A stretch of 64,000 bases of DNA from an uncultured Bacilli bacterium (GTDB lineage: Bacteria; Bacillota_I; Bacilli_A; RFN20; CAG-826): contig CALVNF010000002.1 in assembly GCA_944349595.1 (NCBI GenBank), forward strand, positions 175,468 through 239,467. The letters are read 5' to 3'. Of the stretch, positions 862-54,719 are shown in pieces; position 1 is the first letter of the stretch; each line of letters starts with the position of its first letter. The notes beneath the pieces are model-generated. The model saw only the letters and a list, made by a program, of their open reading frames with translations. It was not told where the DNA came from and searched no databases. Both the position numbers and the translations under genes were made by a program.

Positions 862-1841
862 ATCAAGAAATTTTAAATTACTCAAATAAACAAAAAGAAA
901 ATTATGATAAAGTTTTAAAATTAATTAATAAATATAATAAGATTTGTGTTTTTAGACATAGAGTTCCAGATTTTGATGCTTTAGGTACTCAATTGGGTTT
1001 ATATTACTTTTTAAAAGATAATTTTCCTAATAAAGATATAATTTGTGTTGGAGATGATCATAATAAATTCACCCCAAAACTTTATGAAAAAATGCAAATA
1101 ATCCCAGATGAATGGTTTGATGATGAATTTTTAAGTATTGTTGTCGATGCTTCAGATAAATCAAGAGTTTCTGATGAAAGATTTATCAAAGCAAAAGAAA
1201 TTGTTGTTTTTGATCACCATCCATATGTTAAAGATTATAATTGTCTTGCAATTATTGATACTGAAATCGCAGCAGCTAGTGAATTAGTAGCCGATTTTAT
1301 GATATATTCTAATCTTAAAATATTAGAAAAATCTGCTTATTATTTATATTCAGGTCTAGTTGGAGATAGTGGAAGATTTTTATATTCTTCAACTAATCAA
1401 CATACATTTGCAATTGCCGAAGAATTAATTGACAAAAAAATTGATATTAATAAAATTTATAGTTTAATGTATGAACAAGAAATTAATGATTTAAATATTT
1501 TAAGATATATTTTAAATCATTATAAAGTGTCAAAAAACGGCGTTGCTTATTATGTTTTAAAAGAATCAAGAATGAAAAAACTTGGTTTAAATCAAATGAA
1601 TGCTAAAGCTTTTGTAAATACATTTGCAAACATCGAGGGAATTGAAATATGGTGTTCTATTGCTCAAGATGTTGTTTCTAATTGTTATAGAATTTCAATT
1701 AGATCTAAAAAAATAGCTATTAATGGCATTGCAAATAAATATGAAGGCGGAGGCCATGCCCAAGCAAGCGGATGTAAGATTAATTCTTTAAAAGATTTAA
1801 AGAAATTTATTTCAGATTTAGATAATTTAATTATTAAATAA
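858..1841 (+). CDS. nrnA: DHH/DHHA1 phosphoesterase, bifunctional oligoribonuclease / pAp phosphatase NrnA-like
   Basis: 327 aa. Contains the DHH motif (VFDHHP) and the DHHA1 C-terminal GGGHAQASG motif. Confidence 0.75.
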   Translation: MNQEILNYSNKQKENYDKVLKLINKYNKICVFRHRVPDFDALGTQLGLYYFLKDNFPNKDIICVGDDHNKFTPKLYEKMQIIPDEWFDDEFLSIVVDASDKSRVSDERFIKAKEIVVFDHHPYVKDYNCLAIIDTEIAAASELVADFMIYSNLKILEKSAYYLYSGLVGDSGRFLYSSTNQHTFAIAEELIDKKIDINKIYSLMYEQEINDLNILRYILNHYKVSKNGVAYYVLKESRMKKLGLNQMNAKAFVNTFANIEGIEIWCSIAQDVVSNCYRISIRSKKIAINGIANKYEGGGHAQASGCKINSLKDLKKFISDLDNLIIK

Positions 1842-4800
1842 TGAATTTTGTTCCATTACATGTAAATACTTCATATTCTATTTTATCTAGTTGCATAAAA
1901 TTAGATGATTTAATGATGAAATTAAAAAAAGAAAATATTTCATCATGCGCAATAACAGATCAAGATACATTATTAGGCTTTCCAAATTTTTATAATATTT
2001 GTAAAAAAAATAATATAAAACCACTTTTTGGTCTTGATTTAATAATTGATAATAATAAATTTACATTATTAATTAAAAACGAATTAGGATATAAAAACTT
2101 AATTAAATTATCTTATATTAAAAATATAAAATCGGAAAATTTAAATTTTGATGATGTAAAAAAATATCTAAATAATATTGTTTTAATTATTTCAACTCAA
2201 GAATCAGATATTTTTAATAACCCATATGATTCATGGCCATTTTTGTTAAAAAAATATAGTGAACTTTTAAAAGATGATTTTTATATCGGACTTGAATTTT
2301 ATTCTCCAAATGATAAAAATAATGAAGTTTTGCGGGGATTTTTAAAAAAATATCCTTTTAATTATCTTGCATTTCCTCATATTAAATACATTAATCCTCA
2401 AGATGCAATAACAATCGAAATTCAAAATTGCATTAAAGAAAAATTTACTTATTCATTAGATATAGATAAACAAGAAGACATAAAAAGAGTTGGAAAAAAT
2501 TATTTTATGTCCGAAGAAAAAATTAAAGAAATTTATAATAACGAAGAATTAATTAATACAATATTTTTGACAAGTAAATTAAATTTTAACTTTGATATTA
2601 AAAGAGGAAAAATATTAAGATTTTCTACTAATCAACAGCAATCTTCTCAATTAATAAAATCACTTTGTTATGAAAAATTAAAACAATTAAAATTAGATAA
2701 TAATCATAATTATATTGAAAGATTAAATTATGAATTAGATGTTATTGATCGAATGGGATATAACGACTACTTTTTAATTGTTCAAGATTATGTAAATTAT
2801 GCAAAAAATAATGATATTTTAGTCGCTCCTGGAAGAGGTTCTGCTGCTGGTTCTCTTGTTTCTTATCTTTTAAATATCACCGAAGTTGATCCATTAAAAT
2901 ATGATTTACTTTTTGAAAGATTTTTAAATATTGACCGTGTGTCAATGCCTGATATTGATATTGATTTTGAAAATACAAAAAGAGATTTAGTTGTTTCATA
3001 TTTAAAAAATAAGTATGGTCAAGATCGAGTTTGTCAAATCGTAACAATTCAAACTCTAAAAGCAAATCAATCTATTAGAGATATTGGAAGAGTATATAAA
3101 ATTCCACAAGAACATATTGACAATTTATGTAAGAATTTAGATGATAAATTAACATTAAAACAATCTTATGAAAAAAATCCTAAATTAAGAAATTTTGTTA
3201 ATCAAGGAGTAAATGACAAAAACGATTACTATTTAAGAATTTTTTACTTAGCTCAAAAAATTGAAGGATTACCAAGACAACTTGGAATTCATGCCGCAGG
3301 TGTTGTCTTAAACGATGAAAAAATAATTGATGATTTACCACTTATTTATTCAAAAGAATTTAATATAAATTTATCTCAATATGAAATGAATAACTTAGAG
3401 CAACAAGGTTTTTTAAAAATGGATTTATTGGCTCTTAAAAATTTATCAACAATTCATTTCATTTTAGATTTAATTAAAAAGAATAAAAATATTACACTTA
3501 AATTTGAAGATATACCAATTGATGAGCCTGAAATTTATTCAAAATTAATTAATAAAGGCCTAACGATGGGATTATTTCAACTTGAATCAGATGGAATAAA
3601 TAATGCAATTAGTATAATCCAGCCAAATTGTTTTAATGATATTGTTGCAACAATTGCTTTATTTAGACCTGGCCCAATGCAATCAATTCCATTATATGCA
3701 GAAAGAAAGCATAATCTTGAAAAAGATCCAAATTATAAAATTAATTATTATAGTAATGATTTATATGACATTTTAAAATCAACTTATGGAATAATTATTT
3801 ATCAAGAACAAATCCTTCAAATTTGTCAAAAAGTTGCTGGTTTTACTCTTTCAAAAGCTGACATTTTTAGAAGAGCAATTTCAAAAAAGAAAATTAGTGA
3901 AATTGAAAAACTGAAAAAGGATTTTATTGAAGGCTGTTTAAAAAATCATTATAGCTATGAAATTGCGGTTAACTTTTATAATTTAATTGAAAAATTTGCT
4001 GGATATGGTTTTAATAAATCTCATAGTGTATCTTATTCTATGATTACAACAAGACTGGCTTATTTAAAATTAAAATATCCGGAAGAATTTTATATAGCGC
4101 TTCTTCAAACAACAAATAATAGCAATGATGATAAATTTAAGAAATTTATTGACGAAATAACACTTAGAAATATTAAACTAGGTTTACCAGATATTAATTT
4201 AGCAGATAATATTTTTGTTTTAAATAATAATGAAATGATTATGCCACTTTCTTCAATAAAAGGGTTAAATATGGATACAAGAGAAAAAATTTTATTTGAA
4301 AGAAAAAACCATGGACAATTTAAATCATTTTTTGATTTTATCGAAAGAATGTATGAATATAAAGTGTCTCAATCTCAAATACAAAAATTAATTGAAGCGG
4401 GTTGCTTCGACTCATTAATTAAAAATAGAAATGCGCTTTTAGATAAAATCGAGTTGTGTTTTAAATATGCAAATGTAACCTCTAAAACAGGAAATTTATT
4501 TGATGAATCAAATGAAAATGAAATTCAATTTGATGAAAATATATATGAAAATAAGTTTCAAAAAATAATAAATGAAATTAAATTATTAGGCATTGCAATT
4601 TCTGACAATCCTCTTAAATACACAATTATTGATGCAAATAAAAGATTCAAAAATCATATTATTGATATAAAAGATTTAAAATTAAATGAAGTTTCTTATA
4701 TTCATGTCTATATTTCTAGAATTAAAAAATCAAACAAAGATCCAAATAAGATAACTACTTTTTTGAGCGTTTTTGATATAAATAATACTACTTTAGATTG

Positions 4801-4957
4801 CATCATTTTTAATGATACTAGACTTGCAATGAAAGATTACTCAAATCTTGCCGAGGATAAAATCGTTACATTAAAAGGCACACTCTCTCAAAGAAATGAT
4901 AAAAAATCATTTATTGTTGAACAAGGTGAAATTATGGAGATTAAAGAAAATGAATAA
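1841..4957 (+). CDS. dnaE: DNA polymerase III alpha subunit (DnaE-type)
   Basis: 1038 aa. N-terminal PHP domain (MNFVPLHVNTSYSILSS), then polymerase core and an OB-fold region. Confidence 0.9.
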   Translation: MNFVPLHVNTSYSILSSCIKLDDLMMKLKKENISSCAITDQDTLLGFPNFYNICKKNNIKPLFGLDLIIDNNKFTLLIKNELGYKNLIKLSYIKNIKSENLNFDDVKKYLNNIVLIISTQESDIFNNPYDSWPFLLKKYSELLKDDFYIGLEFYSPNDKNNEVLRGFLKKYPFNYLAFPHIKYINPQDAITIEIQNCIKEKFTYSLDIDKQEDIKRVGKNYFMSEEKIKEIYNNEELINTIFLTSKLNFNFDIKRGKILRFSTNQQQSSQLIKSLCYEKLKQLKLDNNHNYIERLNYELDVIDRMGYNDYFLIVQDYVNYAKNNDILVAPGRGSAAGSLVSYLLNITEVDPLKYDLLFERFLNIDRVSMPDIDIDFENTKRDLVVSYLKNKYGQDRVCQIVTIQTLKANQSIRDIGRVYKIPQEHIDNLCKNLDDKLTLKQSYEKNPKLRNFVNQGVNDKNDYYLRIFYLAQKIEGLPRQLGIHAAGVVLNDEKIIDDLPLIYSKEFNINLSQYEMNNLEQQGFLKMDLLALKNLSTIHFILDLIKKNKNITLKFEDIPIDEPEIYSKLINKGLTMGLFQLESDGINNAISIIQPNCFNDIVATIALFRPGPMQSIPLYAERKHNLEKDPNYKINYYSNDLYDILKSTYGIIIYQEQILQICQKVAGFTLSKADIFRRAISKKKISEIEKLKKDFIEGCLKNHYSYEIAVNFYNLIEKFAGYGFNKSHSVSYSMITTRLAYLKLKYPEEFYIALLQTTNNSNDDKFKKFIDEITLRNIKLGLPDINLADNIFVLNNNEMIMPLSSIKGLNMDTREKILFERKNHGQFKSFFDFIERMYEYKVSQSQIQKLIEAGCFDSLIKNRNALLDKIELCFKYANVTSKTGNLFDESNENEIQFDENIYENKFQKIINEIKLLGIAISDNPLKYTIIDANKRFKNHIIDIKDLKLNEVSYIHVYISRIKKSNKDPNKITTFLSVFDINNTTLDCIIFNDTRLAMKDYSNLAEDKIVTLKGTLSQRNDKKSFIVEQGEIMEIKENE

Positions 4958-44715: not shown

Positions 44716-45348
44716 ATGGAAGAAAATAATAAAGAAAAAATTTTACAAGAAGCAGAAAACAGCGATAAAGAAATTGATGATAGAATAGAATTAACAAGAA
44801 AACAACGTTTCGCAAATAAAGTTCATCCTAATGGTTCTCTTATTTTAATGTTTGTAATTATAATTTTATTAGGTGTTGCTATTGGTACAATTTATTTGGA
44901 TAATTTTGTAAAAGTCAGTATGTGTTTGTTTATTGTTTCTTGTTTGCTTGTTATATTATCTTATAATTTTTTAAAATTTTATAATATTTCATATTTGTTA
45001 CTTATTTTTATATTATCTATTTATTCTTTAATAGCTACTTATGCATTTAATAATAATGATTTATTATACCAGGCTCCAATATTATGTTTCTTATTTAATA
45101 TTATATTAGTAAGTGGAAAATTTCTTGATTTAAAAAAGGTTTCAAATAAAAAGTTTAATATTGCTTCATTTATCATATTACTATTATTATTAATTTCAAA
45201 TATTGTATTAATTAGTTTATTTTCATTAATCAATTATAAATTATTAACACTCGTTTTAATGTGTTTAAACTTAGTTTTTATAATATATAATTTAGTTTAT
45301 TTAATAATTTTTAGTAATAAAATTGTAAGTTTAACTTCAAAAAACTAA
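44716..45348 (+). CDS. Hypothetical polytopic membrane protein
   Basis: Acidic N-terminal cytoplasmic segment followed by ~5 hydrophobic helices. No recognisable motif. Confidence 0.35.
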   Translation: MEENNKEKILQEAENSDKEIDDRIELTRKQRFANKVHPNGSLILMFVIIILLGVAIGTIYLDNFVKVSMCLFIVSCLLVILSYNFLKFYNISYLLLIFILSIYSLIATYAFNNNDLLYQAPILCFLFNIILVSGKFLDLKKVSNKKFNIASFIILLLLLISNIVLISLFSLINYKLLTLVLMCLNLVFIIYNLVYLIIFSNKIVSLTSKN

Positions 45349-49807: not shown

Positions 49808-49881
49808 GGGGAATTAGTTTAATGGTAGAGCAGCGGTCTCCAAAACCGTTGATATGGGTTCGATTCCTATATTCCCCGCCA
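49808..49881 (+). tRNA. tRNA-Trp (anticodon CCA)
   Basis: GGGGAATTAGTTTAATGGTAGAGC, anticodon loop CTCCAAA, GGGTTCGATTCC, and ATTCCCCGCCA. The anticodon is CCA rather than UCA. Confidence 0.85.
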
Positions 49882-49896
49882 TTGATTTTGACTTAA

Positions 49897-49925
49897 TAAG
49901 TGCGTTAATTACGCACTTTTTTTAT
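49897..49925. terminator. Bidirectional intrinsic terminator (tRNA-Trp + strand / pilin gene - strand)
   Basis: AAGTGCGTTAATTACGCACTTTTTTT. Confidence 0.7.
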
Positions 49926-50143
49926 TAAAATACTAATTCGCCAAAACCTTGTGCTTGAGTAGTGTTTTCATTGAAACTACTAATCTCTTCACTTAATTTA
50001 TTTTCAATTTCATTTGTTGTGTTATTAAACATTGAAATCATAACACCTGCTACTGAACCAAAAATAGCTAATACTAATAAAACTCCTAAAATTTGACCTT
50101 TAATTTCTGACATTTTTTTCTCCTTTTTATCTAAATTCTCCAT
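49925..50143 (-). CDS. Flp/class-III-signal-peptide pilin-like protein (72 aa)
   Basis: MENLDKKEKKMSEIKG|QILGVLLVLAIFGSVAGVMISMF: a charged leader ending in KG, then a ~22-residue hydrophobic segment and a short polar tail. It is the last gene of the TadA-containing cluster. Confidence 0.45.
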   Translation of the reverse strand: MENLDKKEKKMSEIKGQILGVLLVLAIFGSVAGVMISMFNNTTNEIENKLSEEISSFNENTTQAQGFGELVF

Positions 50144-50486
50144 TATAAAGACCTACAATTACTGATCTTTTTATTGACAATGAGTTCAAATTATTTAAGA
50201 AAAATAATGGTTTAATTTCGCTGACCAATTCAAACTCAAGTCTTTCACCTACGATTGATGTATCATTAATTATATTTATATGAATTAATGAACTTTGTTT
50301 TTCAATGTATTGATTTACTTCATCTAGTGCTCTTGTCCCTCCTCTCATTGAAAATATATTACAAATCGTTGACGAAATTGCATCTAAATTAACATAGTCG
50401 GCTTGTATAACAATTAAATCTATAAAAAATAATGCGCAAATAAAGAAAATAAATAATGAAAGTAAACTACCTAATTTAGAACCCAC
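50127..50486 (-). CDS. TadE-like / pseudopilin-like membrane-anchored protein
   Basis: 119 aa. N-terminal hydrophobic helix (LLSLFIFFICALFFIDLIV) then a small extracellular domain. Overlaps its neighbours, consistent with an operon. Confidence 0.35.
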   Translation of the reverse strand: MGSKLGSLLSLFIFFICALFFIDLIVIQADYVNLDAISSTICNIFSMRGGTRALDEVNQYIEKQSSLIHINIINDTSIVGERLEFELVSEIKPLFFLNNLNSLSIKRSVIVGLYNGEFR

Positions 50487-51147
50487 TTATAACACTCCCC
50501 ATTAAATTAATAACACCGACTATAATTGCTAATATAAAAATAGCTCCGCCAACCAAAGAATAATTTGCCTTTGATAAAAGATTTTGTTTTTTTCTTTCTT
50601 CTTGTTCTTTTTGATTATTTTCTAAAATTTTGTCAAATAAATAGATAAAAGAATTAATATGTTTTGTATCCGATAATGAATCATTCATTTCATAAATCGA
50701 TAACATTAATTGATCAATAATTTCTCTATTAAAATTTTTTGCAAAATTTAAATACGGAACAACCGATTTATCATTATCAATTTGTGATAACATTATTTTT
50801 ATTTTTTCAGATAATTCATTTGATGAATATTTTAATATCTCGTTAAAAGCTTGATATATATTAAATCCTGCTTCTAAATAAATTCTAAAATATATCAGAG
50901 AATTGATAAAATCATTAAATAATCGATTCTCTTTTGCTTTTTTTGAGGATTCATATAAGAAATACATTATAACTGGGGTAATTAATAATAAAACTGAACT
51001 AACAATTATATATATTATATTTTTATATAGAAAAGATAATCCTACTCCAGCTGTTAAAAGAATTAATTCAATAATTAATATTTTTAATATTTCTTTTTTG
51101 TAATTTTTACCAATTGCTTCAAAATAATCTTTAATTTTTTCCATCAT
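50476..51147 (-). CDS. TadC/TadB-like (T2SS-F-type) inner-membrane platform protein
   Basis: 223 aa. N-terminal TM pair, a ~120-aa cytoplasmic helical domain, and a C-terminal TM segment (GspF-like topology). Confidence 0.4.
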   Translation of the reverse strand: MMEKIKDYFEAIGKNYKKEILKILIIELILLTAGVGLSFLYKNIIYIIVSSVLLLITPVIMYFLYESSKKAKENRLFNDFINSLIYFRIYLEAGFNIYQAFNEILKYSSNELSEKIKIMLSQIDNDKSVVPYLNFAKNFNREIIDQLMLSIYEMNDSLSDTKHINSFIYLFDKILENNQKEQEERKKQNLLSKANYSLVGGAIFILAIIVGVINLMGSVISGF

Positions 51148-51842
51148 AATTTGTACTCCATGATATAATCTGTTTTATAAAGTCTTTTCATATATAAATA
51201 TAAACTGACAATATAGAATAAAAACCCACAAAAACTAATTATTTTAAAATACAAGCTTTCAATAATCTCACTTGTAAAATTTCCTAATGATAATTTAGCA
51301 ACGAGTAAAATTAAAAACGCAAATAACCACATTGATATAAACGAAAATAAATAACTCACAGATTCTTTTTCAGTTTTTATATTTAAATATGAGAGTCTTT
51401 TTGTTTCATTTAATAAATTTTTTGAAATATTTAAGAAATTTCCACCAACATCTTCAAATATTTTTAAACATTGTTTAAAAATATTAAATATATTAAAAGT
51501 GTAATGTTTATCTAAAAAATATAGCAGATCTTCACTATTTTTATTGTTTTCATCAAAATTTTCTAATGTCTTTTTATTTAATTTTTTCTTTGCATTATTC
51601 AGTGCCGCTGTTGTTGAATCAACAAAATTAAAGCTAATTATTGTATTTTCAATAAAATTACAGCATTCAGAAAATCTACTTATTTTATATGTGTATTTTT
51701 TGTCAATAAAGTAAATAAATATTAAATAGGATAAACTAATTCCACAAAATAAAATAACAAAAATAAGATCTGGAATTATATAACATATTATTAATGTCGA
51801 TATTAAAATTGACATTATGTTTAGTATAAAATTTTTGCTCAT
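51144..51842 (-). CDS. TadB/TadC-like (T2SS-F-type) inner-membrane platform protein
   Basis: 232 aa. N-terminal TM helices, a cytoplasmic domain, and C-terminal TM helices. Sits immediately 3' of the ATPase. Confidence 0.4.
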   Translation of the reverse strand: MSKNFILNIMSILISTLIICYIIPDLIFVILFCGISLSYLIFIYFIDKKYTYKISRFSECCNFIENTIISFNFVDSTTAALNNAKKKLNKKTLENFDENNKNSEDLLYFLDKHYTFNIFNIFKQCLKIFEDVGGNFLNISKNLLNETKRLSYLNIKTEKESVSYLFSFISMWLFAFLILLVAKLSLGNFTSEIIESLYFKIISFCGFLFYIVSLYLYMKRLYKTDYIMEYKL

Positions 51843-51850
51843 ATTAACTC

Positions 51851-52861
51851 CTAATTAACCTGTAATTGAAATCCTTTAAACGCAGAATATGCTTCTGGGA
51901 GTTTAAAAAATTTTCTTACACCTTTTTCTTCTTTGTATATTTTTTTATAATCTTTCCCATCTGATATTAAAATTTCATTTATATATCTTTTAACTCGACC
52001 ATTTGTGAATTCTTTTTTTACACCAATTAAAACATTTATATTTTCGTAAATATCTTGTTCAAAAATATTCATGTTAATATCATTTTTTTGAAGTAAAAAT
52101 TTGATTCTTGATACTAAACTTAAACCAGTTTTTGCATGCATGGTTGTTATTGTAGAGATACCCGTTAAAAGAGAATTATAAACATCTAAAAATTCATCAC
52201 CTCTTGCTTCTGCTAAAATTAAATAATCTGGATTAAGTCTTAAGCTTGTTTTAATTAAGTTATTAACATTACAAAATCGTGATTTTTCTGGAATCATTAT
52301 TGATATATCAGAATTCTTATAATCAAGATCCAGTTCATTAATAGTATCAATAATTACAAGCCTCTCATTATTTTCAAACATTTTTAATAAATATTTTTGA
52401 AATTCAGTTTTTCCGCTTGATGGTTCTCCATAAATAATAATTGAAAGTTTATTTTTTAAGATAAATTTAAAAAATTCATACAATTTTTCGTCAAAGAAGT
52501 CATTATTATTGGTGATTCTAATTTCTTTTGAAAATTTACGGATTGAGAAAATCAGTCTTTTATTTCCATATTTTTTAGAAATCGATTCATGAACAACGTT
52601 TAATCTAATATTTAAAAAAGAAACATCAACAATTGGATTTGAAATTGAAAAATTAATATCTAAAAAATTTGTTATATCTTTAATTAAATTTCTTATTTCA
52701 TCGTACTCGACTTTTTTATCATATAATTGTCTGCCTTTAAAGTTATCTAAATAATAAATTTTTTCACCATTATAAGATATATCAGTTATTGAATCAATAT
52801 TTAAAAGCTCTGCAAAACAGCTATTATTTAATCTATCAATTACTTTTTCAATCATTTCCAT
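51851..52861 (-). CDS. TadA/CpaF/VirB11-family secretion ATPase
   Basis: Walker A GEPSSGKTE, VIIDTINEL, Asp/Arg box LRLNPDYLILAEARGDEF, and His box TITTMHAKTG. These are co-linear with CpaF motifs (GGTGSGKTT / VTIEDAAEL / RMRPDRIILGEVRGPEA / TLHANTP). 336 aa. Confidence 0.7.
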   Translation of the reverse strand: MEMIEKVIDRLNNSCFAELLNIDSITDISYNGEKIYYLDNFKGRQLYDKKVEYDEIRNLIKDITNFLDINFSISNPIVDVSFLNIRLNVVHESISKKYGNKRLIFSIRKFSKEIRITNNNDFFDEKLYEFFKFILKNKLSIIIYGEPSSGKTEFQKYLLKMFENNERLVIIDTINELDLDYKNSDISIMIPEKSRFCNVNNLIKTSLRLNPDYLILAEARGDEFLDVYNSLLTGISTITTMHAKTGLSLVSRIKFLLQKNDINMNIFEQDIYENINVLIGVKKEFTNGRVKRYINEILISDGKDYKKIYKEEKGVRKFFKLPEAYSAFKGFQLQVN

Positions 52862-53224: not shown

Positions 53225-54433
53225 TTAAACAATAAACACCTCATTGTACTTATTATCACCAGTATTAAATTGTCCATTTAAATAATATTCATTTTTGTGA
53301 TTAAAATATAATTCTTTTCTAAATCCTATTTTTTCATTTGAACAAGATATATAGAATTTATCTAAAGAAATGCTAGGTCTACAATACATCCATCTATATC
53401 CTTTGTAAGAATTTAAATTATTTGCAAAATATATTGCATCTGAAATTTTATACCCGGTTTTTAAATATCTATTTACATCTTTTTCTAATACATTAACCAT
53501 ATAAGATGGATTGTCACTATAATGCATTTTTACTTTACCATCAGTGACTATATCTTCTAAAACCATGTATCCGTCTTTATAAATATAGCTATAATCGTAA
53601 TGTCCACCTATATCACTGCTACCGCATTGAGCATCATAACCAGTAAAACGACAACTAATTGTATCTTCGTTAAATTTAATATTTAGACACATTTTTAAAG
53701 ATGTTTTAACATCTCTATAATGCGAACTTCTCACACATTTTGAATTGAGTTTTGAATCTAATATTGGATTTTCTGGATCATTATCCGTATATCGATACTT
53801 ATAACAACTATAATCAACTTTACCATAATATAAATCGTGTATGTCATTATATCGTAATGTTGAAAAATCATACACTTGAATTAAATTTGTAAATCTTCCA
53901 TTTAAAATTACTGGAACTCCCCGCTCATATTCAAATATTTTTTGTGTTAATAAATCATCTTGATTAATATGTAATGTTGTTGAATCTTTAAATTCAGAAT
54001 TATATAAGCTTATAAATCCATCATTAACACCATCATTAAATCTAAAATCAATGAAATCTTCACTTTTATCAAAATAAAATTCGCAAGTTGCTTGATATTT
54101 TCGACTTATAGAAGACATTCGTGAAGGTAAATCAACTTTAAAAATTCCGCCTTTTGTTTCGACTTCAAAAGATACTTTAATAGCATTTCTAACTAAAGGT
54201 GTATAACTAAATTTTATTTTATAATAATAATGAGGTTGATAACTTGATGGTTGTCCATACTGATGATAAACAATTTCGGTTCTATCAAATTCCATAACAA
54301 AATCTTCTATTTTGTATTCGTCTTGATAAATATAAGTTCCATCTTCTATTTTATTATTATTTATACCAGCGCTTGTTAAAAATAAAAATGATAAAACTGA
54401 AAATAAAACTAAACTACCCTTTGATACTTTCAT
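53225..54433 (-). CDS. Secreted Tyr/Asp/Cys-rich protein of unknown function
   Basis: 402 aa. N-terminal signal peptide (MKVSKGSLVLFSVLSFLFLTSAG). No known motif. Lies in the same operon as the Tad-like genes. Confidence 0.35.
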   Translation of the reverse strand: MKVSKGSLVLFSVLSFLFLTSAGINNNKIEDGTYIYQDEYKIEDFVMEFDRTEIVYHQYGQPSSYQPHYYYKIKFSYTPLVRNAIKVSFEVETKGGIFKVDLPSRMSSISRKYQATCEFYFDKSEDFIDFRFNDGVNDGFISLYNSEFKDSTTLHINQDDLLTQKIFEYERGVPVILNGRFTNLIQVYDFSTLRYNDIHDLYYGKVDYSCYKYRYTDNDPENPILDSKLNSKCVRSSHYRDVKTSLKMCLNIKFNEDTISCRFTGYDAQCGSSDIGGHYDYSYIYKDGYMVLEDIVTDGKVKMHYSDNPSYMVNVLEKDVNRYLKTGYKISDAIYFANNLNSYKGYRWMYCRPSISLDKFYISCSNEKIGFRKELYFNHKNEYYLNGQFNTGDNKYNEVFIV

Positions 54434-54719
54434 GTTTACTCCCTATTGAATAAAAATAATAAAATTTATTTAATGTAATATTTTTAAAATTTCCATATTG
54501 TTTATTCGTGTAATATTTTTTCCACCAAGTATTATCTAAAGTAAAATAAATACTATTAAATAATTTTTTCTCTTCCGTATTTAATTTATTTAATGCCAAT
54601 TCAAATTTAATAATTTTCCTATGATCTTGTTGAGTATCAATTCTTTTTATTATTTTATATTGACATATAAGATATTCGTTTTTTAAATTTTCAATTTCTT
54701 TTAATTTTTGTTTTTCCAT
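54414..54719 (-). CDS. Small hypothetical cytoplasmic protein
   Basis: 101 aa, basic and coiled-coil-like. It is the first gene of the cluster and overlaps the next gene by 20 nt. Confidence 0.3.
   Translation of the reverse strand: MEKQKLKEIENLKNEYLICQYKIIKRIDTQQDHRKIIKFELALNKLNTEEKKLFNSIYFTLDNTWWKKYYTNKQYGNFKNITLNKFYYFYSIGSKHESIKG

Follow-up and report, generated by a model that had tools for sequence, protein, structure and literature searches.

We analyzed a 64,000-nucleotide stretch of DNA, hereafter the window, from an uncultured Bacilli bacterium (GenBank assembly GCA_944349595.1, contig CALVNF010000002.1, positions 175,468 to 239,467 of the forward strand), in which eight tightly packed, co-directional genes on the minus strand, running from 54719 to 49925, end with the gene for a small pilin-like protein. 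A first-pass annotation had described this protein as a pilin of 72 residues, with a 15-residue charged leader ending in Lys-Gly, then Gln and a hydrophobic stretch. The 72-codon open reading frame (ORF) is present on the minus strand at 49925..50143, with the translation MENLDKKEKKMSEIKGQILGVLLVLAIFGSVAGVMISMFNN...ELVF, and Lys-Gly-Gln does precede a hydrophobic stretch, which consists of 23 uncharged residues from Q7 to F29 in the numbering used below. The gene itself is shorter. The upstream gene extends to a stop codon at 50127-50129 and so includes the first ATG (50141-50143), which has no Shine-Dalgarno sequence; the second ATG follows the sequence AAGGAG (Table 1).

Comparison with relatives points to the same start. 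ATG is the start codon in 75 of 75 distinct orthologous loci, with an AGGAG-type site upstream in 73, and 218 of the 219 distinct family sequences begin at the second Met. MSEIKGQ opens all but 3 of 14 database homologues, the 10-residue extension being restricted to those three, which are near-identical, and among the matches listed nearly every profile alignment begins at residue 1 of the matched protein. Because of this start-site evidence (the second Met, the AGGAG upstream, and the starts of the homologues), we assign a leader of six residues, MSEIKG, and a product of 62. That the true start might be the downstream Met was a possibility the first-pass annotation had itself raised, and for the start site this is what we find; a 72-residue product with a 15-residue leader is rejected, given the second-Met start in the family, the AGGAG site, and an ORF that begins inside the upstream gene. 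The longer form is most likely an over-extension into that gene, with nucleotides 50114-50143 (30 nt) untranslated. Public gene calls for this species conflict between the 72-residue form (P0001-P0003) and the 62-residue form (P0004-P0006), and the correction removes this recurrent 30-nt over-extension. One distant member, P0242 (116 residues), is exceptional in that 63 residues precede MSEIKGQ, an N-terminal extension that is probably a miscall.

Conservation was assessed in 218 distinct orthologues pooled from genome loci and a search of representative proteins; the family comprises at least 316 clusters at 50% identity in a profile search of 1.84 billion representative proteins. The N-terminal consensus is M-S-E-[ILV]-K-G-Q-[LI]-L-G. 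Met1, Glu3, and Lys5 are found in 100% of the orthologues. Position 2 is Ser in 94% and otherwise Gly, Ala, or Thr, with one Phe, and position 4 is Ile, Leu, or Val, again with one Phe. Gly6 (99%) is replaced twice by Ala, and Gln7 (98%) otherwise by Ser or Ala; Leu9 (98%), Gly10 (95%), Phe18 (99.5%), and Phe29 (94%) are likewise conserved. Synonymous codons vary among the orthologous loci at Ser2 (TCN and AGY), Gly6, Leu9, and Gly10, and the constraint is therefore on the protein. Counted from a cut after Gly6, no member (0/218) has Asp or Glu at +1 to +20, residue +5 is Ile, Val, Met, or Leu in 218/218 (Val in the window protein), and residue +6 is Ile, Val, or Leu in nearly all. The conserved part of the protein is its N-terminal 29 residues. 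Beyond residue 30 both sequence and length are free, with overall lengths of 46 to 135 residues and a median precursor of 61, and the C-terminal tail (~30 residues in the window protein) is variable. At or near the C terminus of 73 of the 218 members there is a hydrophobic-hydrophobic-x-[F/Y] motif (ELLTF, DLLHY, NLTF, LLSY), the window protein ending in ...GELVF (49925-49945); this motif may be a subunit-packing or recognition element.

A class III signal consists of a short polar leader whose last residue is Gly or Ala and, directly after it, ~20 hydrophobic residues; at the motif level this layout is seen in 218/218 members, as MSEIKG followed by the 23-residue helix. The archaeal form of this layout, with Lys or Arg at -2, Gly or Ala at -1, and a hydrophobic stretch after, is also found (Lys5 in 100%; Gly6 in 99%, with Ala otherwise). 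When all start codons of the window, on either strand, were tested for a loose class III pattern, four ORFs matched, three of them in this operon, the fourth being a false match to an internal start inside CorA. Because the pattern is confined to the operon, apart from the false start in CorA, and is conserved in 218 orthologues, the class III motif is not a product of chance. The earlier proposal of a pilin-like protein with a class III-type N terminus is supported.

The same segment might instead be an ordinary Sec signal, with MSEIK as the n-region, residues 6 to 19 as the h-region, and a signal peptidase I site at 20/22 from which a peptide of ~40 residues would be released. At position 22, 197 of 218 members have Ala, Ser, or Gly, and at position 20 Ala, Val, Thr, Ile, Ser, or Gly is usual, which fits the -3/-1 rule. 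However, the segment discarded would be the conserved one and the supposed mature peptide the poorly conserved one (46 to 135 residues overall), and the uncharged stretch, at 23 residues, continues 7 residues past the supposed cut to the conserved F29, which is typical of a membrane or pilin helix and not of an h-region. As the gene also stands in an operon encoding an ATPase and a platform, we regard Sec processing as highly improbable.

Table 1. Coordinates of the pilin-like gene, its signal elements, and the other genes of the operon (window positions; aa, amino acids)
Feature	Position	Strand	Remarks
Major pilin-like protein, coding sequence (real)	49925..50113	minus	62 aa, MSEIKGQILGV...ELVF; stop 49925-49927
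Six-codon leader M-S-E-I-K-G	50096..50113	minus	putative class III cut between Gly6 (50096-50098) and Gln7 (50093-50095)
Hydrophobic alpha1-type helix, Q7 to F29, QILGVLLVLAIFGSVAGVMISMF	50027..50095	minus	charged residues: none
Shine-Dalgarno sequence AAGGAG	50120..50125	minus	6 nt 5' of the real ATG (50111-50113); read from sequence
G+C-rich hairpin	49898..49918		between tRNA-Trp and the pilin stop; terminator-like on plus; 6 nt past the pilin stop on minus
TadE/TadF-like minor pilin candidate	50127..50486	minus	119 aa; MGSKLG, putative cut, SLLSLFIFF...
TadC-like half-size inner-membrane platform protein	50476..51147	minus	223 aa, polytopic
TadB-like half-size platform protein	51144..51842	minus	232 aa, polytopic; paralogue of the 223-aa protein
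Secretion/assembly ATPase, VirB11/TadA/archaeal GspE-FlaI group	51851..52861	minus	336 aa; public calls from Met3 = 334 aa
Bitopic protein with N-terminal transmembrane helix	52848..53222	minus	124 aa; present in 91 loci
Secreted protein with ordinary Sec-type signal peptide	53225..54433	minus	402 aa
Protein like the MG284/MPN403 C-terminal domain, first operon gene	54414..54719	minus	101 aa; NCBIfam NF045770, E 8.5e-7, 28.8 bits vs cutoff 37.3

To place the protein among known pilins, we compared it with family profiles. The window protein has no significant family match in Pfam or NCBIfam, and 55 relatives gave only weak or chance matches; the family profile, searched against all PDB chains, returned chance transmembrane matches and no solved pilin. 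Flp_Fap (PF04964) does not match the window pilin at E <= 1 or the 55 members at E <= 10, and the Flp motif G/XXXXEY (Glu at +5 and Tyr at +6, the slash marking the cut) is absent from 218/218 members. Neither N_methyl (PF07963) nor Class_IIIsignal (PF04021) matches any of the 55, and the motif G/F(T/S)L(I/L)E is found in no ORF of the window or the related loci. The reported lack of Glu at +5, of the Flp motif, and of the Com/type IVa motif is thus true of 218/218 members. The only pilin family to recur is the archaeal Pilin_N (PF07790), with 6 of the 55 members, a best E of 0.01, and all matches below threshold, which we take as a hint and nothing firmer. Members of the family are named in no public source, and a literature search for RFN20 and pili found nothing.

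In being a very small pilin without a globular domain, encoded with tadA-tadB-tadC-like genes, the protein resembles those of the Flp type. It also has the Gln at +1 (98%) of the EppA motif QxSxExxxL, the rest of which is absent, with Leu at +3 and Ile, Val, Met, or Leu at +5. Since the Flp features (profile, Glu5, and Tyr6) and the EppA motif QxSxE both fail, the protein should be filed neither as a Flp pilin nor as an archaeal DUF361 pilin. The first-pass annotation had called for alignment with Flp, TadF, and archaeal families and considered the signal closer to an archaeal or deep-branching Tad-type one than to those of Firmicute Com or canonical Flp pilins. In the comparison of the pilin with these families, Pilin_N alone recurred, with weak matches of which none was significant, and there were no matches to Flp_Fap. 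The archaeal likeness is borne out in part: Lys at -2, Gly at -1, and Gln at +1 are as in archaeal class III signals, and the weak Pilin_N matches agree, but the likeness is not exclusive, as Epd pilins have Glu5 and Gram-positive Flp-like pilins without Tyr6 exist. The contrast that had been drawn is fair at the motif level, but the signal is not specifically archaeal.

The genes upstream encode the candidate parts of an assembly machine. The ATPase passes Pfam T2SSE (PF00437; 51.2 bits against a cutoff of 24.9), and in NCBIfam it scores 124 bits with VirB11, 88 with TadA-type, and 59 with FlaI models, each below its own cutoff. Its family profile matches archaeal GspE (2oap, 6.6e-30), VirB11 (2e-25), FlaI (2e-24), and CpaF (6e-24) in the PDB about equally, and far more weakly PilB, GspE, and PilT (about 1e-8). 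The 232- and 223-residue families are paralogous (hhalign probability 99.5%, E 4e-22, 210 columns), and structure modeling predicts the GspF/PilC fold, and with it a T2SSF-type platform, for these proteins; because a search with the 223-residue protein found only 6 homologues, the alignment under its model is shallow. Orthologues of the 119-residue protein begin M-[S/G]-[Y/S/N]-[K/N]-[I/L]-[G/A/S], with Gly in 65%, Ala in 15%, and Ser in 10% at position 6, and continue with a hydrophobic segment that contains an invariant Asp. The top Pfam family for this protein is TadF, which matches 5 of 40 members below threshold, with a best E of 2.7e-4, and the window protein with an E of 0.019. Given this top family, the six-residue leader, and the small residue at position 6, it looks like a TadE/F-type minor pilin; a single-sequence AlphaFold2 model of it was too poor for use (pLDDT 44). 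Homologues of TadZ, RcpC/CpaB, and TadV were not detected in the operon with Pfam or NCBIfam.

Judged by sequence, then, the general components of a type IV filament system, an ATPase, a platform, and class III-type subunits, are present, and the pilin-like protein is very probably a type IV filament subunit. It could alternatively be a small bitopic accessory or anchor, one that does not polymerize, of a VirB11-type secretion or DNA-transfer apparatus. The ATPase is of VirB11 size (336 residues) and scores best with VirB11 models in NCBIfam, and this possibility would also accommodate the failure to detect TadZ, RcpC/CpaB, or TadV homologues in the operon and the lack of a significant pilin-family match. 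Yet genes for VirB4, VirD4, VirB6, and a relaxase are not present, the operon belongs to the chromosomal core, with conserved synteny, and not to a mobile element, and the predicted GspF/PilC fold is specific to type IV filament machines and their SpoIIIA-like relatives. The TadF-like partner and the pilin-like N terminus fit a filament as well, and an accessory role of this kind seems to us improbable.

By analogy, the functionally closest systems are the Tad/Flp pili and the archaeal Epd pili. With Tad/Flp pili (Aggregatibacter Flp1, Caulobacter PilA) the system shares a short, all-helical pilin, here of ~56 residues in its predicted mature form, without a globular domain; a gene order in which the ATPase is followed by two half-size platform genes; a TadE/F-like minor pilin adjoining the major pilin; and the absence of a retraction ATPase. 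It differs from them in having no Glu5/Tyr6, no Flp motif (218/218), and no Flp_Fap match, in a leader that is invariant and fixed at six residues, in a locus without TadV, TadZ, or RcpC/CpaB, and in an ATPase of only 336 residues that resembles CpaF no more than it does archaeal or VirB11 ATPases. The archaeal Epd pilins of Methanococcus maripaludis and class III signals resemble it in Lys at -2, Gly at -1, Gln at +1, and a short leader (5 to 13 residues in Epd), and the Epd system also has small pilins of ~60 residues and two half-size platform genes (PMC3875500, PMC6668835). Sulfolobus and Haloferax pilins also lack Glu5, and the weak Pilin_N matches are a further likeness to archaeal pilins. 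Unlike the Epd system, this one belongs to a bacterium of the Bacilli; Epd pilins retain Glu at +5 and the motif QxSxExxxL (PMC3875500), known in Pfam as DUF361 and missing from this family, and neither an EppA/FlaK-type peptidase nor a FlaH-like second ATPase was found nearby.

Bacterial precedents exist as well. Gram-positive "Flp-like" pilins without Tyr6, and tad loci without recognizable prepilins, have already been described (Imam et al. 2011, PMC3244431), and those loci are like this one in being monoderm and tad-like, with small pilins that depart from the canonical Flp motif and with processing that is predicted there as it is here. However, their Flp-like pilins keep Glu or Asp at +5 and most of the loci contain tadV, and whereas Mollicutes served in that study as a pilus-free negative set, the present family sits in Mollicutes-like, small-genome Bacilli (PMC3244431). 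Com (ComGC) and type IVa pilins have in common with the family a leader of ~6 residues ending in Lys-Gly; the protein differs from them in having no G/F(T/S)LxE motif, no N_methyl match, and no globular domain, and its ATPase and platform are of the Tad/archaeal type and not of the PilB/PilC type.

We favor, with moderate confidence, the reading that the machine is a highly diverged Tad/Epd-like (type IVc-like) filament system with this protein as its major subunit, and that the protein is cut between Gly6 and Gln7. The prepilin would insert N-in/C-out through its 23-residue helix, and an A24-type prepilin peptidase, its gene lying elsewhere in the genome, would cut after Gly6, at a site (-2 Lys, -1 Gly, +1 Gln) of the archaeal, EppA-like kind. 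EppA substrates of M. maripaludis have Gln at +1 after leaders of 5 to 13 residues whose last residue is Gly (PMC3875500). The mature pilin would be all-helical, 56 residues long, and N-terminated by Gln, which may cyclize to pyroglutamate; such cyclization would remove the N-terminal charge, and Glu5 would therefore be dispensable. A precedent for pyroglutamate is the major pilin of M. maripaludis. The ATPase and platform would extrude the pilins, with the 119-residue minor pilin, into a thin, Tad-like fiber that might serve in adhesion or DNA uptake. Polymerization of the 56-residue subunit would resemble that of Tad pilins, which have 40 to 60 residues and no globular domain and pack like archaeal pili (PMC10710030), and two platform genes are a feature of Tad/Epd systems (PMC6668835).

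Several observations weigh against this reading, foremost those on the peptidase. A screen for multi-transmembrane proteins with a GxGD motif, covering the window and some 1 Mb from ~90 related loci, found no Peptidase_A24-like gene, and no A24 peptidase appears in the precomputed Pfam lists of the loci with gene tables or in the 10 kb beyond each end of the window (about 84 kb around the operon in all). A 210-residue polytopic protein encoded 5 kb from the operon (44716-45348, plus strand) has no Pfam match and no GxGD motif and receives no support as the peptidase. The leader residues are invariant throughout, including the acidic Glu at -4 and the small residue after Met, a degree of conservation that a leader destined for removal would not usually require, and in the minor pilin Lys is found at -3, not -2. 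In addition, the pilin lacks a significant pilin-family match in Pfam, in NCBIfam, among the 55 members, and with the profile against the PDB. Genes for prepilin peptidases often lie at a distance from those for the pilus (PMC6668835). As no A24 peptidase was found around the operon or in the related loci, we can only infer the cut between Gly6 and Gln7.

The same observations bear on a different possibility, that of a leaderless, unprocessed pilin. The filament would be the same, but no peptidase would cut the subunit, at most Met1 would be removed by methionine aminopeptidase, and S-E-I-K-G would stay in the mature protein, where Glu3 and Lys5 would supply the charge pairing given in classical pilins by Glu5 and the N-terminal amine. 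The leader positions are invariant or near-invariant although the ATPases of the relatives are only 36-50% identical, which argues for retention, but short leaders are well conserved in type IVa and Com pilins too. A small second residue allows Met excision, and 217/218 members have Ser, Gly, Ala, or Thr there, which fits an uncut subunit. The lack of a peptidase gene in or near the operon in any of about 90 loci, and in the roughly 84 kb around it in this genome, points the same way, as do the small genomes (an 879-kb contig), with the reservation that peptidases are often unlinked to pilus loci (PMC6668835). Some Gram-positive tad loci have also been reported without recognizable prepilin motifs (PMC3244431). 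Against these points, Gly6 (99%, Ala otherwise) and the Gly, Ala, or Ser at position 6 of the minor pilin, whose leader is equally long, form the signature of a shared cleavage site. No type IV filament is known to be built from uncleaved subunits. We therefore hold a leaderless pilin to be possible but unlikely. Somewhat more doubtful is the proposition that these small-genome, Mollicutes-like gut Bacilli have a streamlined type IV filament system without a prepilin peptidase, in which (M)SEIKG is kept and Glu3/Lys5 replace the pairing of Glu5 with the N-terminal amine.

Three genes of the operon remain. The 101-residue gene occupies the same operon position in 67 related loci, and its product is possibly an operon-specific regulator; the gene also connects the clade to the Mycoplasma MG284/MPN403 proteins, which are of unknown function. 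A gene for an exported protein of 300-400 residues always fills the slot of the 402-residue protein, yet an iterated search recovers only 9 loci. Such hypervariability is the pattern expected for a surface protein under diversifying pressure, and the 402-residue protein is a possible adhesin or surface partner. Some orthologues at this slot have a lipobox (LTSC). The MKVSKG start of the window protein was considered as a third class III signal and rejected as a coincidence, as orthologues have ordinary Sec or lipoprotein signals without the Gly. The 124-residue protein has no significant family match in Pfam or NCBIfam, and most of its orthologues carry the motif Q-x-N-G-[IV]-N-R directly after the transmembrane helix, diverged in the window protein.

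Downstream, a tRNA-Trp(CCA) gene (49808-49881, plus strand) converges on the pilin gene, and the intervening hairpin may terminate both transcripts. A promoter scan of the DNA, which has 24% G+C, was uninformative (43 sites against 50 expected). The window (~24% G+C) uses the standard code, TGA not being a sense codon. An alternative genetic code was considered and rejected, as TGA is not sense and the pilin gene has no CGG codon. Reassignment of CGG to Trp has been reported in the related genus Onthovivens in a 2026 paper (PMC13092985); the 46 genes of the window contain 2 CGG codons (1841-4957, codon 165; 53225-54433, codon 171) against 421 AGA, and no tRNA with a CCG anticodon was found in the window.

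The same operon, in the same gene order, is present in related contigs; in the loci for which there are gene tables, its usual neighbors are gmk and CNNM-family genes. Operon genes were also recovered in about 90 loci of species-representative genomes. This conserved synteny indicates a vertically inherited chromosomal operon and not a mobile element. In the "Bacilli bacterium" metagenome-assembled genome (MAG) GCA_036654355.1, a phage-type integrase and a Rep_trans replication gene lie just downstream of the pilus operon and acpP (L006, 11494-14291; L007, 9012-11421), which suggests an integrated element downstream of the operon there. By their record titles, the relatives are MAGs of uncultured Bacilli, "Erysipelotrichaceae," or Bacillales, obtained from the rumen and from the guts of chicken, pig, horse, and human, the best match being an 879-kb contig. 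Ca. Alectryobacillus merdavium, with 52% ATPase identity, is the closest relative to have a name and is placed in GTDB order RFN20, family CAG-826 (PMC8035907).

Type IV filaments are defined by an ATPase, a platform, class III pilins, and a prepilin peptidase, and three of these four are present here, so diverged that the pilin and both platform proteins escape standard profiles. What we describe is a previously unannotated, widespread family of pilins and their machine in uncultured, small-genome, Mollicutes-like Bacilli of gut and rumen. Glu5 has been described as absolutely conserved in bacterial type IV pili (PMC10710030); by the evidence of this pilin, a bacterial lineage is able to do without it. 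The invariant six-residue N terminus and the missing peptidase gene together pose a testable question, whether the pilin is cut or uncut, and the importance of the family rises considerably if it is uncleaved. For an abundant, uncultured clade of the animal gut, the family provides a marker and a candidate organelle of adhesion or DNA uptake.

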